A stretch of 64,000 nucleotides of DNA from Candidatus Binataceae bacterium (GCA_035504735.1 DATJRJ010000129.1:4771-68770); one strand, 5' to 3'. Positions 32,812 to 39,361 are shown, numbered from the stretch's first letter. The notes: generated by a model from the letters alone, not told the origin. Numbers and translations: made by a program.

Positions 32812-33222
32812 GTGAAGCAGCCGGAAAACGATCAGGCGGGCAATCGGGAACTGCCGCGGATGCCGTTTGCGGAAACGCTCGGAATCCGTTACCTCAGCAC
32901 AGCGCGCGATCGCATAGTCGCCGAGATGGAGGTGCGGGATACGCTCTGCACGCTGCCGGCGGTATTGCATGGCGGGGCGATGATGGCGTTTGCTGACACG
33001 CTCGGCGCCTACGCCACCCTGCTCAATCTTGAGACGGGCAAGAGCACCACGACCATCGAATCGAAGACCAACTTCTTCGCGCCCGCGCCGGCCGGCACCA
33101 AGGTCATCGGCGAATGCCTGCCGCTCCATCGCGGCCGCCGCACGATGGTATGGCAGACCCGCGTCACCTCCCCGGAGGGCCGGCTGCTTGCAATGATCAC
33201 GCAGACCCAGATGGTCCTCTAG
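32812..33222 (+). CDS. PaaI-family hotdog-fold thioesterase
   Basis: MPFAETLGIRYL...LHGGAMMAFADTLGAYA...ESKTNFFAPA...RRTMVWQTRV is the PaaI / 4HBT class II signature. Start is GTG 32812 or the ATG at M17. Confidence 0.85.
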   Translation: MKQPENDQAGNRELPRMPFAETLGIRYLSTARDRIVAEMEVRDTLCTLPAVLHGGAMMAFADTLGAYATLLNLETGKSTTTIESKTNFFAPAPAGTKVIGECLPLHRGRRTMVWQTRVTSPEGRLLAMITQTQMVL

Positions 33223-33260
33223 CAGGGCCGCGAGTTGTCAACCGCGCGGGCGTAGTTTCG

Positions 33261-34352
33261 TTACTGAAAGTCTTTTCGGTAAGTGACGAAATTCGCGGTC
33301 ACGCGGGCGCCCAGACCTGCAGCCGTGTTGCGCGAGGCCCAGTTGTCGTCGTGCACCAGCGTGTATCCCGCGTAGCGCATCCCCTGCTGCGCCATCGTCA
33401 GAAACGACCGCGCAGCCATCGCGAGCGCAACTCCACGCCCCCGCATCCGCTCGATTACCCCGATATTGATCAGCGCGCCGCGGGTCCCTCCGCCACGTGC
33501 GGGGCTAAGTTTCACGCCGGAGCGGACGCGGGCCAGTACGAAGCTCAGGTCCGGCACCGAGAAGACCGTGCCGACCGGCTTGCCGTCGGCTATCGCCATC
33601 ATCGAGAGGTCAGCCACCGGCGAATCCCACAGCGACGCCATCATCGGCCGTACCTCTTCGCGGCTGATCGGGTTCCAGCCCCAATGCCGCGCGAACGAGG
33701 CGTTGGTGACATCGGTCCAGCTATCGACCGCGTCCATGAAACCGTACCGGCGCCAGCTCTTGATGGTGATATTCGCGGCCGCGGCCGACTCGACCATCCG
33801 CGGATAGCGTTCCAGGAGTTCGGGCGTGAGCTCGGCGGTGAAATCGCTCTGACCCTTTTCGGTCAGGAAGCCGGCGTTCTTGAAATAGCTGTGGTAGTAG
33901 TCCGGATTTCCGCGCAGCAGAAACGAGGGCAGATTTCCATAATTGTCGATCGCGTAGGGATAATCGAGAAAAGCGGCGAAGCCGCTGCGCGCAGCTTTCA
34001 TCTCGCGTTTGCGCAGCCATTCGAGCGCGCGCTCGAACATCGCGGCCACCGCCTCGTGCTGGCCGGGCAACGCCTCGAAATGGATCAATTGTCCAAGTGA
34101 TTCGTTCCAATGCTGAACGTAGCGCTGATTGATAACGGCCGTAACCCGCGCCACCAGCTGATCATTGTCGTACGCCGCCAGCGGGGCCAGCTCGAGATAA
34201 CTGGAGAGCGGGCTGCGCCCCGCCAGCAGCGCGATTTCGTTGTGGACATCGGGTGGCCACCACGCCTCGCGCTCGGCATAAATCTGGTAAGGGAAGCGCG
34301 CGAATTCCTCGCGGCCTTCGCGGCCGGTGACAGCTTGTACGCGGATGCTCAT
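33261..34352 (-). CDS. GNAT-like acyltransferase family protein (tentative)
   Basis: 363 aa. The C-terminal region ...IGVIERMRGRGVALAMAARSFLTMAQQGMRYAGYTLVHDDNWASRN resembles a GNAT acetyl-CoA-binding core (R-G-x-G-V/A). The N-terminal domain was not recognised. Confidence 0.55.
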   Translation of the reverse strand: MSIRVQAVTGREGREEFARFPYQIYAEREAWWPPDVHNEIALLAGRSPLSSYLELAPLAAYDNDQLVARVTAVINQRYVQHWNESLGQLIHFEALPGQHEAVAAMFERALEWLRKREMKAARSGFAAFLDYPYAIDNYGNLPSFLLRGNPDYYHSYFKNAGFLTEKGQSDFTAELTPELLERYPRMVESAAAANITIKSWRRYGFMDAVDSWTDVTNASFARHWGWNPISREEVRPMMASLWDSPVADLSMMAIADGKPVGTVFSVPDLSFVLARVRSGVKLSPARGGGTRGALINIGVIERMRGRGVALAMAARSFLTMAQQGMRYAGYTLVHDDNWASRNTAAGLGARVTANFVTYRKDFQ

Positions 34353-34428
34353 GCGGAGCCGTCCAAAGCGGACTTGCGGCCGTTAAGCTGCCGCCGGCGG
34401 CGCGTCGAGCTGTCGCACCCGGAGTCGG

Positions 34429-34929
34429 CTACTTGGCTCCGACGACGGTCGGCACCGAATCCATCAGCCCCGGTGAGTCCTCGGCGAAGTCCAGTTTCTC
34501 GACGCCCGCGTAAGGATTTTCCCACTTCCCGAAATCGAGCGGATCGCCGTCGACGTATAGCTCCATCTCGTTGCCATCGGGATCCTTGAAATAGACGCCG
34601 CGTGCGACGCCGTGGTTGGTGGTCGCCACCACCTTGACGCCGTGAGACTTGAGATCCCGGTAAGCGGCGCCCAGTTCTTCGTAACTCTTCATCCTAAACG
34701 CGAAATGGAGCAGTCCGACCTGTTCAAACTGGCCGCCATCGGCTTCCGGACCGACTTCGAGCAGGCCGAGCTCGTGATGGTCGCGGCGGTTGGCCGCCAG
34801 AAAGGCAATCTTGAATTGCGGCACCTCGCCCATCAGCTCAAGGCCCATCACTTCGGTATAGAACTTCTTGGAACGCTCCAGGTCGCGAACCTTGATGACC
34901 AGGTGACCGAGACGATCAGGGTGAATCAT
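34429..34929 (-). CDS. VOC (glyoxalase / bleomycin resistance / extradiol dioxygenase) family protein
   Basis: 166 aa. LGHLVIKVRDLERSKKFYTEVMGLEL...HHELGL...LLHFAF...GVYFKDPDGNEMELYVD. A strong RBS (AAGGAGG) lies 9 nt upstream. It starts 70 nt downstream of the DUF692 gene on the same strand. Confidence 0.85.
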   Translation of the reverse strand: MIHPDRLGHLVIKVRDLERSKKFYTEVMGLELMGEVPQFKIAFLAANRRDHHELGLLEVGPEADGGQFEQVGLLHFAFRMKSYEELGAAYRDLKSHGVKVVATTNHGVARGVYFKDPDGNEMELYVDGDPLDFGKWENPYAGVEKLDFAEDSPGLMDSVPTVVGAK

Positions 34930-34999
34930 CGATTAGAGCCTCCTTGGGACGCCCGGGTTCGGTTGCCCTCGGCGATGGCGTCCGTTGCTCTCTCTACAT

Positions 35000-35842
35000 C
35001 TACATCAAACCGGGAGCCGAGTCACAAGCGGCCCGCATACGTGCCTCTTCGGCCGCTTCAGCCAGCACCGCAAACTCGGGGATATGGTCATCCCATTCGA
35101 TCAGCGTCGCGATCGGTCCGAAGCGCCGAACCGCGTATTCGTACAGTCTCCAGACTGCCGCGCTCACCGGATGGTCGTGGGTATCGAGCAGGTAATCGCC
35201 GTGATCGCTATAGCCGGCCAGATGAAATTGCGCGACCCGATGGGCCGGGATCGCGTCGATGTAATCGATCGGATCGAAGCCCTGATTAAACGCCGTCACG
35301 TGAATATTGTTGAGGTCGAGCAGGATTCCGCAATCGGCCTGCTCGGCCACCGCCGCGAGAAATTCCCATTCCGTGATCGTCGAGGCGCGAAATGTCATGT
35401 AGCTCGAGATGTTCTCGAGCAGAATTCGCCGCCCGAGGATCTCCTGCACGACCCGGACACGGCCGGCGACGTGGCGGATCGCCTCCTCGGTATACGGCAG
35501 CGGAATCAGATCGTGCAGGTTGTGTCCGCCGGCTCCGGTCCAGCATAGATGGTCGGAAATCCAGGCCGGCTCGAACCGCCGCGCCAGTTCAAGCAGGCGG
35601 CCCAGGTAATCGCGATTCAACGGATCGGTCGATCCGACCGACAGCGATACGCCGTGCATCACGATCGGATAATCGCGCCGCACGGCCTCGAGCACCTCGA
35701 GCGGCCGCCCGCCGTCGACCATGAAGTTCTCGGAAATGATCTCGAACCAGTCGATATGCGGGTGATCGTCGATCACGCGCGAGTAATGAGGTCGGCGCAG
35801 CCCGACCCCATAACCCAGCGCCGGAAATTCAGAACTGTCCAT
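35000..35842 (-). CDS. bufB: DUF692 / multinuclear non-haem iron oxidative enzyme (MNIO; MbnB/TglH/BufB family)
   Basis: 280 aa. GYGVGLRRPHY...IDWFEIISENFM...PIVMHGVSLSVGSTDPL...ISDHLCW...LIPLPYTEEA...LLENISSYM...ILLDLNNIHVTAFNQGFDP...FHLAGY is a full-length match by eye to the DUF692 (UPF0276) TIM-barrel family. It lies 65 nt downstream of the Cys-rich peptide gene. Confidence 0.9.
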   Translation of the reverse strand: MDSSEFPALGYGVGLRRPHYSRVIDDHPHIDWFEIISENFMVDGGRPLEVLEAVRRDYPIVMHGVSLSVGSTDPLNRDYLGRLLELARRFEPAWISDHLCWTGAGGHNLHDLIPLPYTEEAIRHVAGRVRVVQEILGRRILLENISSYMTFRASTITEWEFLAAVAEQADCGILLDLNNIHVTAFNQGFDPIDYIDAIPAHRVAQFHLAGYSDHGDYLLDTHDHPVSAAVWRLYEYAVRRFGPIATLIEWDDHIPEFAVLAEAAEEARMRAACDSAPGLM

Positions 35843-35907
35843 CGATCCGTTACCGACCGCGGCCGCGCGCCGAAACCTGCAGCAGCGTCCGCATTTCCGG
35901 GCCGGTC

Positions 35908-36189
35908 CTACATGCTCTGCGGCTTACCGCCCTTGTCGGTGCAGTCCTTGTCAGAGGATGTGTATACGAAGCCCTCGCCCTTGCATGAGTTCTGTCCGGG
36001 GCCCGGGCTGCTGGCGGTCTTGCACGCGCTCTTTCCAGAGCAATCGTTGCCGCCCATACATTTGATCTTGGCGGCCTGCGCGGTAGTGCTCGATGAACTG
36101 CCGGAAGCCTGTGCCTGAACCTTAGTTGCGACAAACGCCATCGCGACAGCACTGGCGAGGATCGCACCTGAAATCACATTCTTGTTCAT
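35908..36189 (-). CDS. bufA: secreted Cys-rich DUF2282-like peptide (bufferin-type RiPP precursor candidate)
   Basis: 93 aa with a Sec-type signal peptide (MNKNVISGAILASAVAMAFVATKVQAQA). The core KIKCMGGNDCSGKSACKTASSPGPGQNSCKGEGFVYTSSDKDCTDKGGK resembles the DUF2282 pattern (KC.G...NDC....SC.G....Y.....C..GG). An SD (AAGAGG) lies 8 nt upstream. Confidence 0.8.
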   Translation of the reverse strand: MNKNVISGAILASAVAMAFVATKVQAQASGSSSSTTAQAAKIKCMGGNDCSGKSACKTASSPGPGQNSCKGEGFVYTSSDKDCTDKGGKPQSM

Positions 36190-36384
36190 ATTGATGCCTC
36201 TTGTCGGGAAAACTTTACAGTCTGGACGCCAGATTCGCCCAAGTGTTGTGGTTTATGCAAGACCGTTACTTTGAGAAAGTGTTTCCGTTACGCTATGGTT
36301 CCGCCGGAGCTTCTCGGACCGGGAACCTTCCGCGTCGTTGATGAGTTATCCACTCTCAGACGCTGATGGCCGCTGATCCCTCAT

Positions 36385-36975
36385 ATGGCGCAAAACCTGC
36401 CCATCGGCGCGGACCGGCGCAAACTCTTCGAGCGCGAGGCGCTGCCGCATCTCGACGCGCTCTATGCTGCCGCTTTTCGCCTGGCACGCAATGCCGACGA
36501 CGCCAACGACCTGCTCCAGGAAACCATCCTGCGGGCCTTCCGCTTCTTTCATCAATTCACTCCCGGCACCAATTGTCGCGCCTGGTTGTTGACCATCCTG
36601 TACAATGTCTTCCGTAACGTATATCGCCGCGGTACCCGCGAGCAGGTCGCCGCCTCGGCCGAGGAGTTCGAGCGCCGCGCCGATACTGACAGCATCCATC
36701 CCAGCGCCGCACCCTCGAATCCCGAGGACATCGTGCTCGAGAGCGTACTCGATCATGAAGTCGAGCAGGCGCTTGACGCGCTGCCCGAGGATTTTCGCAC
36801 AGTGCTGCTGATGGTCGATCTCGAGGAGCTCAGTTACCAGGAGGTTGCGCGGGTGATGGAGCTGCCGGTCGGCACCGTGAAATCGCGGGTCTCGCGCGGC
36901 CGTGCCTCGATGCGGCGCCAGCTCCAGGATTTTGCCGACGCGCGGTGCCTGAAAAAGCCGATGACGGGAAGTTGA
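36385..36975 (+). CDS. ECF-type RNA polymerase sigma-70 family factor
   Basis: 196 aa with region 2 (DANDLLQETILRAFRFFHQF...CRAWLLTILYNVFRNVYR) and region 4 (LPEDFRTVLLMVDLEELSYQEVARVMELPVGTVKSRVSRGR). Confidence 0.9.
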   Translation: MAQNLPIGADRRKLFEREALPHLDALYAAAFRLARNADDANDLLQETILRAFRFFHQFTPGTNCRAWLLTILYNVFRNVYRRGTREQVAASAEEFERRADTDSIHPSAAPSNPEDIVLESVLDHEVEQALDALPEDFRTVLLMVDLEELSYQEVARVMELPVGTVKSRVSRGRASMRRQLQDFADARCLKKPMTGS

Positions 36976-37799
36976 ACGGGCATCGAAACGTGGATTGCAA
37001 CCAGTGTATCGAGCTCCATCTGAGCGCCTATGCCGACGGCGAACTCGTCCCTGACGAGGCCCGCGCGGTCGAGGAACATCTGCGCGGATGCGATCGATGC
37101 CGGGCGGAGCTGGCTGCGGAGCGCGCGCTGAAGGCCCGCATCCATCGACAGTTCGGCGAACCCAGGGCACCGGCTGCACTCGCGGCGCAGATTCGCCAGG
37201 CTCTCGAGCGGGAGGCCCTTGGTTCCGTCTCCCCCGCTCCCCAAGCCAGCCGCAGAAGCGCCTGGTTCTGGATCCCGACGGCGATCGCCGCCGGGATCGC
37301 GATCGTAATCGTCTTGGGACGTGGATATCTCGTGCCTAACGGCTCGGTTCCGCTCTTCGATCAGGCGGCCGCGAAGCTGGCCGCCTTTCAGGGCGGTTTT
37401 GCTCCCAACGTCCCATCCGGCAGCGAGCAGGAGCTCGCGCAGGCTTATCGGGCGGCCCGGATGCCGTCAGGAATTTGGAACTTCAAGAACTCGGGCTTCG
37501 CGCTGATGGGCGGCCGTGTCGATCCCGCCGCCGATGGCGGCCGGGTCACCTACACTGTCTACCGCGGGCCATCGCACGAGAGCATCCTGTGTATGCGTTT
37601 ACGGGATGCAGACGCGAACGCGATCCCGAAGGATGCAATCCTCCGGACGGGCGGGCATGCATTCTATCGCTACCGCGGATTGAGCTTGTGCGTGACCGTC
37701 GACCAGAATCGGCGCTTCGTCTGTATTCTCGCCTCGCGGATGCCGATCGAACGTCTGGAGCAGGTAGTCGCGGGCGCCGCGGTCGATCAGTATTCCTGA
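36945..37799 (+). CDS. anti-sigma factor (zf-HC2 N-terminal domain, one TM, periplasmic C-terminal domain)
   Basis: CNQCIELHLSAYADGELVPDEARAVEEHLRGCDRC is the zf-HC2 motif. The TM helix is AWFWIPTAIAAGIAIVIVLG. The start is uncertain: ATG 36945 overlaps the sigma gene by 31 nt, while TTG 36972 would overlap its stop in TTGA. Confidence 0.8.
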   Translation: MPEKADDGKLNGHRNVDCNQCIELHLSAYADGELVPDEARAVEEHLRGCDRCRAELAAERALKARIHRQFGEPRAPAALAAQIRQALEREALGSVSPAPQASRRSAWFWIPTAIAAGIAIVIVLGRGYLVPNGSVPLFDQAAAKLAAFQGGFAPNVPSGSEQELAQAYRAARMPSGIWNFKNSGFALMGGRVDPAADGGRVTYTVYRGPSHESILCMRLRDADANAIPKDAILRTGGHAFYRYRGLSLCVTVDQNRRFVCILASRMPIERLEQVVAGAAVDQYS

Positions 37800-37837
37800 T
37801 CGCGCTGGGACCGGCGCGGAATGGGCATTCGCGCCAG

Positions 37838-39361
37838 TTAGCCGTGGAGCAGGCGCACCGCGCTGTCGCGGCGCCCTTCGCCATCGGCTTGCGGGCGAAT
37901 CAGTTCGACGCCGTTGTGATGAGCCGGGCTCTCGAACAGCGGTAGCTGATGCGGCTCGTGGTTCTTGGGAATCTCAATCGGGTAGCGGCCGGAGAAGCAG
38001 GCATCGCAAAAACCCTCGTGGCTCTCGCCCTGAAATGAGTAAAGGCCGTCCCAGGTCAGATAGGCGAGCGAATCGGCAGTTATCCAGCGCCGGATCTCCT
38101 CGACCGAATGGTCCGAGGCGAGCAGCTCTTCCTGGGTCGGTGTGTCGATGCCGTAAAAGCACGAATGCGTGGTGGGTGGCGCCGCGATTCGCATATGGAC
38201 TTCGCGCGCTCCCGCCTGCCGCAGCATCGGGATTACCTTGCGCAAGGTGGTGCCGCGCACCAGCGAATCCTCGACCAGCACCACCCGTTTGCCGCGCAGC
38301 AGTTCAGCGACCGGGTTGAATTTGATTTTCACGCCGAAATGGCGAATCGATTGGCGCGGTTCGATAAACGTGCGCCCGACGTAATGGCTGCGCACCAGCG
38401 CCATCTCGAACGGCAGCTTCGACTCCTCGGCATAGCCGAGCGCTGCGGCGTTGCCTGAATCAGGTACCGGCACCACCAGGTCGGCCTCCGCCGGCCATTC
38501 CCGCGCCAGCGCCCGTCCCTGCTGCTTGCGAACCTGGTAAACGTTGCGCCCGAACAGGAGGCTATCGGGCCGCGAGAAATAGACGTACTCGAAGATGCAG
38601 CGCTTGGCGGGCATCGGCGCAAACGGTCGCATCGAATGCGTCCCGTCCTCGCCGATTATCACCATCTCGCCCGGCTCGATTTCGCGGATATACTCGGCCC
38701 GTACCAGGTCCAGCGCGCAGGTCTCAGAGGCCACGATCGTCGCGCCGTTGAGCTTGCCGAGAACCAGTGGCCGGAAGCCGTAGGGATCGCGCACCGCGAT
38801 CAGCGTGTTCTCGGTCAGCAGCACCAGCGAGTAAGCGCCGCGCACCTGCGCCAGCGCTTCGGCGACCCGTTCCGGCAGCGTTGCCGCATGTGAGTTGGCA
38901 ATCAGATGAATGATAATCTCGCTGTCGGAAGAGGACTGGAAGATCGAGCCCGACTGCTCGAGGCGACGGCGCAACTCCTCGAAATTGACGAGGTTCCCAT
39001 TGTGCGCCAGGGCGAGCCCGCCGTGCGCATACTCGACCACCAGTGGCTGGCAGTTGCGAATCGAGGTCGAGCCGGTAGTGGAATAACGATTGTGGCCGAT
39101 GGCGCTGGTGCCCTCCAGGCGCGCGATCACGTCAGCATCGAAGATGTCCGCGACCAGGCCCATCCCGCGATGCGAGGTCAGCGACTTGCCGTTGGAAGAG
39201 ACGATCCCGGCCGATTCCTGTCCGCGATGCTGCAGGGCGTAGAGTCCCAGGTAGGCGAGGTTGGCAGCCTCCGGATGACCGTAAACGCCGAAGACTCCAC
39301 ACTCCTCGTGGAAGCCGTCGAGTTTCGCCTCTGCGGCCGAAAGCTCAACTTCCAGCGTCAT
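37838..39361 (-). CDS. purF: amidophosphoribosyltransferase
   Basis: 507 aa. ...[35 protein letters not shown] gives the Ntn Cys after a short propeptide, with a PRTase domain following. Confidence 0.95.

Follow-up and report, generated by a model that had tools for sequence, protein, structure and literature searches.

A Buf2-class bufferin locus without bufC in a Binataceae-like bacterium: family membership, recurrence and possible routes of maturation

Introduction

Bufferins are the largest group of ribosomally made peptides with post-translational modifications (RiPPs) that are modified by multinuclear non-haem iron oxidative enzymes (MNIOs). To our knowledge, every characterised thiooxazole-forming MNIO needs a partner protein (PME), for substrate recognition and, as has emerged recently, for the active mixed-valent iron state. 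How, then, is a bufferin matured when the gene of this partner is missing from the cluster? The question is raised by a stretch of 64,000 nucleotides from Candidatus Binataceae bacterium (GCA_035504735.1 DATJRJ010000129.1:4771-68770), which as a whole is hereafter called the window, and in which a gene for a bufferin precursor, bufA, and the gene for its MNIO maturase, bufB, adjoin each other without the partner gene bufC and are transcribed divergently from a gene pair for an extracytoplasmic function (ECF) sigma factor and its anti-sigma factor. We report here the family membership of these genes, the absence of bufC from the 64 kb, the recurrence of the layout in related genomes, purifying selection on bufA and bufB and a conserved promoter motif.

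Previous work provides the frame for this question. BufB1 together with BufC1 installs thiooxazoles, BufC1 being needed in vivo and in vitro, and Buf1 and Buf2 protect against copper (PMC11626156). Equally, without HvfC the substrate is not recognised and bound, nor is the active Fe(II)/Fe(III) state reached (bioRxiv 10.64898/2026.07.17.739211). Some genomes encode several precursors and a single MNIO-PME pair, and which MNIOs can work without partners has been explicitly left open by the survey of these systems (PMC12452194). Lineages of Binataceae without bufC offer a natural test set for the sharing of a trans partner between clusters or for a partner-independent enzyme. Our answer, held with moderate confidence, is that the window contains a functional Buf2-class bufferin ('captophorin') locus of an uncultured, Binataceae-like soil bacterium, in which BufB works with a PME partner encoded elsewhere.

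Family membership of the precursor and the maturase

The two genes that define the locus lie on one strand with a gap of 65 nt between them:

35908-36189, minus strand: bufA2-type bufferin precursor gene, 93 aa (open reading frame call and NCBIfam BufA2)
35000-35842, minus strand: bufB, MNIO (DUF692) bufferin maturase gene, 280 aa, full length (Pfam PF05114 and NCBIfam MNIO_BufB)

The open reading frames (ORFs) of the window coincide with the genes called on its source contig (ENA ERZ27256528 k141_1889085, 71,708 bp), and coordinates, strands, the 65-nt gap and the 195-nt spacer towards the sigma gene are exactly those of an earlier note on this DNA. That note had recognized a bufferin-type RiPP locus with a DUF692 (MNIO) enzyme and had suggested a hidden Markov model search with both proteins. 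The search bore out the enzyme, with BufB matching Pfam MbnB_TglH_ChrH (PF05114) at E=5e-109 over profile positions 2-260 of 263 and NCBIfam MNIO_BufB (NF050167) with 379.4 bits at a cut-off of 310; the second-best match, NCBIfam HvfB, reached 248 bits and stays below its cut-off of 360. The description of the peptide as 'DUF2282-like' did not hold, since the 93-aa protein has no match to PF10048 (DUF2282) even at E<=1 in the Pfam scan; it falls instead into the BufA2 (Buf_6/12Cys) family, with 65.5 bits at a cut-off of 60 (E=3.7e-18, residues 9-89) for NCBIfam Cu_RiPP_BufA2 (NF050166). Membership in DUF2282/Buf1, with its PF10048 match and four conserved Cys, was rejected on this ground, and the pairing of DUF2282 with DUF692, put forward earlier as the definition of the system, does not apply to a precursor that is BufA2 and not Buf1. 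Among the related loci (numbered with L in the following), the BufA orthologue of L167 bears the NCBI name 'BufA2 family periplasmic bufferin-type metallophore'. These profiles mark the locus as a true bufferin locus of the Buf2 and not the Buf1 class, and both buf genes would get the right names from current NCBIfam models. It departs from the published Buf2 type in the lack of bufC, in a core with five Cys and an SPGPG motif and in its linkage to an ECF/ZAS regulator pair, departures which leave the basic annotation unchanged.

The precursor is Cys-rich and Sec-exported by prediction, as had been proposed. By inspection, its signal peptide consists of a basic n-region (MNK), NVISGAILASAVAMAFVA and TKVQA|QA, with 17 hydrophobic residues in the h-region and no lipobox Cys; cleavage is predicted after VQA26, which leaves a 67-aa core. 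The signal-peptide motif GAxLAxAVAxxF is kept in the aligned precursors of bufC-less and bufC-linked loci. Five Cys (C44, C50, C56, C69 and C83) are found in the core and not the six or twelve of Buf2; in published Buf2 precursors six Cys are conserved in 90% and twelve in the remainder, the central Cys change by -4 Da each, and CysI and CysVI remain unmodified and are probably disulphide-bonded (PMC12452194, PMC11626156). The column of CysIV is occupied in the precursor alignment by Gly63 within SPGPG (context ...CKTASSPGPGQNSCKG...). The BufA homologues have retained the signal peptide as well as all five Cys, and 53 of the 72 recovered homologue clusters (90% identity) combine SPGPG or SAGPG with five Cys; by this alignment, the SPGPG five-Cys type is a populous and tightly conserved subfamily. 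Because CysIV is Gly, at most three Cys (C50, C56 and C69) could become thiooxazoles, and at most three are predicted for the mature product. The subfamily thus predicts three and not four thiooxazoles, and therefore a different copper stoichiometry or geometry. An AlphaFold2 model of the precursor from a 37-sequence alignment (mean pLDDT 58.8, pTM 0.35) was too poor for a fold search or for Cys geometry and was not used.

BufB is a plain catalytic domain of ordinary length without any added domain. It keeps 70 of the 71 columns that are at least 97% conserved in bufC-linked BufBs, including every conserved H, D, E and N column. Its nearest solved structure is 3bww (E=1e-46); in the alignment with 3bww the equivalents of the HvfB site-3 residues N175, D242 and H244 are N179, D220 and H222, all conserved, as are the ligand equivalents of HvfB Fe sites 1-3. 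In every locus examined, bufA and bufB are strictly adjacent and co-oriented.

Absence of bufC and its recurrence

Of the ~170 related loci that extend far enough, nearly all have bufC directly after bufB; its product, of 270-300 aa, matches Pfam DUF2063 and, weakly, NGO1945_C and represents BufC/PME-type 1. When 10 BufCs, 2 DoxX proteins and one fused BufB-BufC served as tblastn queries, neither bufC nor doxX was detected anywhere in the 64 kb of the window (best E 0.06-0.9). The departure from the bufABC(+DoxX) layout had been noted correctly beforehand; the absence of bufC and the five-Cys core had been gestured at only. In collections of genomes and metagenomes, BufB has its closest homologues in metagenome-assembled genomes of Candidatus Binataceae/Binatia, and the host resembles Binataceae, in which the frame of the locus is conserved as purL-purF-(anti-sigma, sigma)<->bufA-bufB-bufC-GNATlike ... 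rpsF, with housekeeping genes. Two genes follow bufB in the window:

34429-34929, minus strand: VOC-superfamily gene, 166 aa (PF00903), judged to lie outside the bufferin system
33261-34352, minus strand: GNAT-like gene, 363 aa (weak C-terminal Acetyltransf_1 match)

The order bufA-bufB-VOC-GNATlike recurs in L171 (BufB 89% identical), L161 (82%), L081 (80%) and L164-166 (about 71-73%), and L161 shares the sigma/anti-sigma pair of the window as well. L167 (BufB 75%) has bufA-bufB, doxX on the opposite strand and merR-VOC-GNATlike, again without bufC. A second bufC-less group consists of L013, L090 and L091, where the GNAT-like gene comes straight after bufA-bufB with neither bufC nor VOC in between. 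In nine or more bufC-less relatives, no bufC was found within +/-5-8 kb.

These two groups are not sisters in a neighbour-joining tree of BufB, in which the clade of the window goes with the bufC-containing L088 and the L013 group is nested among six-Cys, bufC-containing loci of Binataceae. Their peptide types differ as well, with five Cys in the group of the window and six in the L013 group. On the strength of the tree and the peptide types, bufC has been lost at least twice, independently. The five-Cys state is a separate event from the loss of bufC, since five-Cys members elsewhere have BufC (L001, L088, L100 and L173) or a BufB-BufC fusion (L172).

Two of the five-Cys loci deserve a separate description. 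The fusion in L172 (5611-7431) is a natural protein of 606 aa, composed of the MNIO and HvfC_N/DUF2063, which adjoins a five-Cys BufA, an ECF sigma factor and an 83-aa zf-HC2 anti-sigma factor within an island that also encodes HMA-domain proteins and DoxX; the engineered HvfB-HvfC (HvfBC) fusion reported in 2026 has in this protein a natural counterpart, and the window has no such counterpart. L174 (5400-6270), which shares its sample of origin with L161, has bufB in two ORFs of 60 and 205 aa and, behind them, a 135-aa fragment of BufC; either the gene is a pseudogene with a frameshift or the assembly is wrong at this place.

Selection on the bufA-bufB pair

Between the window and L081, the ratio of nonsynonymous to synonymous substitution rates (dN/dS) is 0.17 for bufA and 0.12 for bufB, with 0.07-0.14 for purF, purL, rpsF and the GNAT-like gene, all values being approximate since dS of about 0.7-1.9 is near saturation. 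For bufB, 15 bufC-less pairs give 0.085-0.19 and 48 bufC-linked pairs a median of 0.133 (range 0.077-0.231); for bufA, values mostly range from 0.12 to 0.20 in bufC-less pairs, with 0.15-0.20 between the window and its bufC-less relatives, and the bufC-linked median is 0.186. As the dN/dS values of bufA and bufB equal those of bufC-linked loci, the bufC-less pair is, by this measure, functional and under undiminished purifying selection. Despite the approximate nature of the ratios, the same conclusion follows from the ORFs themselves, as ten or more genomes without bufC, at amino-acid identities of 67-89%, have kept both bufA and bufB intact over their full length. Pseudogenisation was rejected on the dN/dS values together with the counts of conserved columns.

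The divergent sigma/anti-sigma pair

The regulatory side of the locus comprises two genes and two promoter-like elements:

36385-36975, plus strand: ECF (group 4) sigma gene, 196 aa (Sigma70_r2 and Sigma70_r4_2)
36945-37799, plus strand: membrane anti-sigma gene, 284 aa (zf-HC2)
36272-36302, minus strand: ECF-type promoter-like block on the bufA side, ~83 nt upstream of bufA (aligned motif)
36322-36348, plus strand: ECF-type promoter-like motif on the sigma side, 37 nt upstream of the sigma ATG (motif scan)

The divergent spacer between bufA and the sigma gene spans 195 nt (36190-36384), and the anti-sigma gene overlaps the sigma gene by 31 nt. The proposed pair of an ECF sigma and a zf-HC2 anti-sigma factor was recovered by the domain searches. 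The sigma factor has regions 2 and 4 only in Pfam; it passes the NCBIfam superfamily model TIGR02937 (87.8 bits, cut-off 42.9) and stays under the cut-off of 251 with its best equivalog, TIGR02947 (SigH_actino, 169 bits). Many loci of Binataceae likewise have the sigma gene divergent from bufA. In the anti-sigma factor, the Pfam scan found zf-HC2 only (E=5e-10) and no NrsF (PF06532). Its N-terminal zinc-binding ZAS domain (C18, H45-x3-C49-x2-C52, conserved in 19 homologues) is followed by one transmembrane helix at about 107-125 according to hydropathy and by a C-terminal extracytoplasmic domain of ~150 aa with two Cys, C216 and C249, conserved in the 19 homologues. Residues ~130-284 have no match in Pfam; with the conserved W178-N-F, Y241/Y243, C216 and C249, this part is a candidate sensor domain.

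The linkage of bufferin genes to sigma/anti-sigma regulators had been regarded as common in the earlier note. The published survey found such genes, of the NrsF type, in Buf1 but not in Buf2 clusters (PMC12452194), so that the linkage seen here is a departure from the literature, and the ECF/ZAS pair would extend sigma-factor control to Buf2 clusters.

A motif GGAAC-N18-GTTA marks the sigma side (36322-36348). Matches of the type GGAAC-N18-RTTW number three in the 64 kb with 0.62 expected, and related loci with the sigma/anti-sigma pair have, almost without exception, the motif just upstream of the sigma gene; the sigma-side motif is likely an autoregulated promoter. On the strand of bufA and upstream of it, GGAAC-N18-RTTW is found in 11 related loci. 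The block on the bufA side of the window (36272-36302) reads GGAAC-N18-CTTTCTCA and aligns position by position with GGAAC-N18-GTTTCACA in L161 and with GGAAC-N18-GTTTAGAC in L002, L005, L006 and L008. This conservation supports the idea of an autoregulated ECF sigma factor that might also drive bufA.

Proposed maturation without an adjacent bufC

The course of events that we consider fairly probable, and in which we infer the chemistry, the copper binding, the sigma control and the trans partner alike, would be as follows. The bufA2 product would be a Sec-exported precursor, and before its export BufB, acting as a di- or tri-iron oxidase, would convert central Cys, at most C50, C56 and C69, into 5-thiooxazoles, the outer pair C44 and C83 forming a disulphide. 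The mature protein of ~67 aa might then buffer Cu(I)/Cu(II) in the periplasm. Expression would be under the divergent, autoregulated ECF sigma factor, held by the membrane ZAS anti-sigma factor that may sense an envelope signal or a redox/metal signal. The cis partner gene bufC (PME-type 1, DUF2063 plus RiPP recognition element, RRE) would have been lost from the cluster, and BufB would most probably be served by a PME from elsewhere in the genome, for example from a second MNIO/bufferin cluster. Such pre-existing redundancy is the simplest account because bufC has been lost twice independently with unchanged constraint on the remaining pair.

Several points weigh against this account. HvfB and HvfC that had been expressed separately and then mixed were inactive, which argues for tight co-expression (bioRxiv 10.64898/2026.07.17.739211). 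No trans partner was found, a search for one being beyond the reach of the data, which covered 64 kb here and +/-10 kb in the relatives. The first base of the -10-like element on the bufA side is C in the window and G in the relatives; equally, L081, L164-166 and L171 keep bufAB with no adjacent sigma/anti-sigma pair, so the regulator is not obligatory. The near saturation of dS belongs here as well. Finally, we know of no experimental data for any five-Cys Buf2.

The next reading, which we regard as unlikely, is that the MNIO of the Binataceae clade recognises the precursor, reaches the mixed-valent iron state and installs thiooxazoles with no PME or BufC at all. It would account for two independent losses of bufC without relaxed selection on bufA and bufB and for the absence of bufC from the 64 kb here and from +/-5-8 kb in nine or more relatives, and partner-free MNIOs are treated as an open question in the literature (PMC12452194). 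Three replacements in BufB, V145I, H187Q and H211Y, could be compensatory: the bufC-less clade with VOC has all three fixed, at columns that show 95-97% conservation among 156 other BufBs, and they are the only clade-specific replacements at highly conserved columns, none of them at an Fe-ligand position. All three are missing, however, from the second bufC-less clade (the L013 group), and H187Q is also present in the bufC-linked L084, which weakens this residue as a marker of bufC loss. Further, BufC1 and HvfC are required in the systems in which they have been studied, the latter for substrate binding and the active iron state (PMC11626156; bioRxiv 10.64898/2026.07.17.739211); the exceptions, MovX and ChrH, carry extra domains and this BufB has none; and two gains of independence are less parsimonious than pre-existing redundancy. 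In its specific form, with the BufB of the Binataceae clade maturing a three-thiooxazole, five-Cys bufferin without PME/BufC and with H187Q, H211Y and V145I as a possible adaptation, the proposal is equally doubtful; if it is true, partner independence would have been shown for the first time in a natural, plain-domain MNIO from the thiooxazole-forming group.

That the VOC protein replaces BufC or tailors the bufferin, making bufA-bufB-VOC a new three-gene cluster, is very unlikely. The gene stands exactly in the usual slot of bufC: it lies on the strand of bufB at a distance of 70 nt, its ribosome-binding site (AAGGAGG) is strong, and no terminator was predicted; the arrangement is conserved in L081, L161, L164-166 and L171; and buf1 operons are on record in which extra enzymes are inserted behind the MNIO gene (PMC12452194). 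The protein matches PF00903 (E=8e-22), resembles a one-domain extradiol dioxygenase and has its metal-binding triad intact, with H9, H75 and E123 as well as H51/H52, H106 and Y113 invariant in 121 homologues. The spacing of these residues presumably matches that in the catalytic domain of type I extradiol dioxygenases (BphC-type); the protein lies below every NCBIfam equivalog cut-off and hence receives no specific enzyme name. On the other side, it is a VOC fold in which Pfam and NCBIfam detect neither a DUF2063-like helical domain nor an RRE fold, and a 59% identical homologue is situated in an aromatic-catabolism cluster. Above all, L168 (1-2235) and L169 (1-2000) have purF-VOC-GNATlike without buf or sigma genes, which largely refutes this reading; in L167 the VOC gene is cut off from bufB by the opposite-strand doxX and preceded by its own MerR regulator gene; and the second bufC-less clade has no VOC gene. 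We therefore rejected VOC as a bufferin component and judge the gene, from this comparison, to be a neighbour tied to the downstream GNAT-like gene; the interval 34429-37799, delimited in the earlier note, takes it in. To judge from the loci compared, the stretch from purF to the GNAT-like gene is evidently a hotspot of variation in Binataceae, where sigma/anti-sigma, bufAB, bufC, doxX, merR and VOC occur in varying combinations. As a detail of L167 (1232-3201), doxX overlaps the end of bufB on the opposite strand and the MerR-family gene lies directly before VOC, which hints at a response of VOC and the GNAT-like gene to a metal/electrophile signal of their own.

It is highly improbable that bufA-bufB is a remnant that became non-functional after the loss of bufC and is heading for deletion. 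Experiments show BufC to be essential (PMC11626156), buf is wholly absent from the variable purF-GNATlike interval in L168 and L169, and the survey suggests for orphan precursors that they are possibly 'no longer expressed or functional' (PMC12452194); yet dN/dS of about 0.1-0.2, identical to that of bufC-linked loci, contradicts decay, and the ORFs are intact in ten or more bufC-less genomes down to a BufB identity of 67-70%, with 70 of 71 conserved BufB columns, five Cys and signal peptide all kept. Just as improbable is an unmodified peptide that acts as a secreted disulphide- or thiolate-rich metal-binding or redox protein beside a BufB with another substrate or role. Activities independent of modification have been proposed for orphan bufferin precursors (PMC12452194) and the loss of CysIV shows the Cys pattern to be changeable, but the strict adjacency of bufA and bufB, the passing of the BufB equivalog cut-off and conserved Cys-Lys/Cys-Ser contexts that match modified Buf2 peptides all speak against it.

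Relation to known systems

The buf2 cluster of Caulobacter vibrioides (bufA2-bufB2-bufC2, CCNA_03001-02999; PMC11626156, PMC12452194) shares with the window a precursor with a Sec signal in the same BufA2 NCBIfam family, a BufB-equivalog MNIO immediately downstream, the lack of doxX and a plausible control by an ECF sigma factor. In contrast, the window has no bufC, five and not six Cys with CysIV replaced by Gly in SPGPG, and a host of Binatota-like and not Pseudomonadota affiliation; also, its ECF sigma and ZAS-type membrane anti-sigma genes adjoin a Buf2 locus, whereas SigF-NrsF adjoin buf1 in Caulobacter. With Buf1 (DUF2282, bufABCD with SigF/NrsF; 'gig' operons), the common features are an exported Cys-rich small protein, an MNIO and, as would apply to the window by analogy, thiooxazole copper chelation and ECF-sigma control; the window differs in a precursor without DUF2282 match, in an anti-sigma factor of zf-HC2/ZAS and not NrsF type and in having neither bufC nor doxX.

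The oxazolin system HvfABC of Haemophilus influenzae, with its 3BWW-type MNIO and HvfC, resembles the window in the structure nearest to BufB and in the conserved Fe-site ligands. Its precursor type, with EGKCG repeats, is unlike that of the window, and HvfC, strictly required there, is absent here. For MovX and ChrH, which are MNIOs that reportedly function with no separate PME, there is likewise no partner gene beside the MNIO gene; their additional fused domain may substitute for a partner, in contrast to the plain 280-aa domain of the BufB in the window.

Surroundings of the locus

The GC content of the locus (0.60-0.62) does not stand out from that of its surroundings, and a tRNA scan of the window found none, hence no hallmarks of integration. 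A scan for sigma-70 promoters and terminators between 34000 and 38000 stayed at chance level. In an Rfam scan of 33000-38500, the sole match was the small RNA RcsR1 at 33967-34057 on the minus strand, sub-threshold with 24.5 bits at a gathering score of 60 (E=0.085); situated inside the coding region of the GNAT-like gene and with a score far under the threshold, it was treated as chance. The GNAT-like protein itself (33261-34352, minus strand) has no NCBIfam match; most Binataceae loci of sufficient length carry its gene downstream of the buf region and in the same orientation, and it is also present where buf genes are absent.

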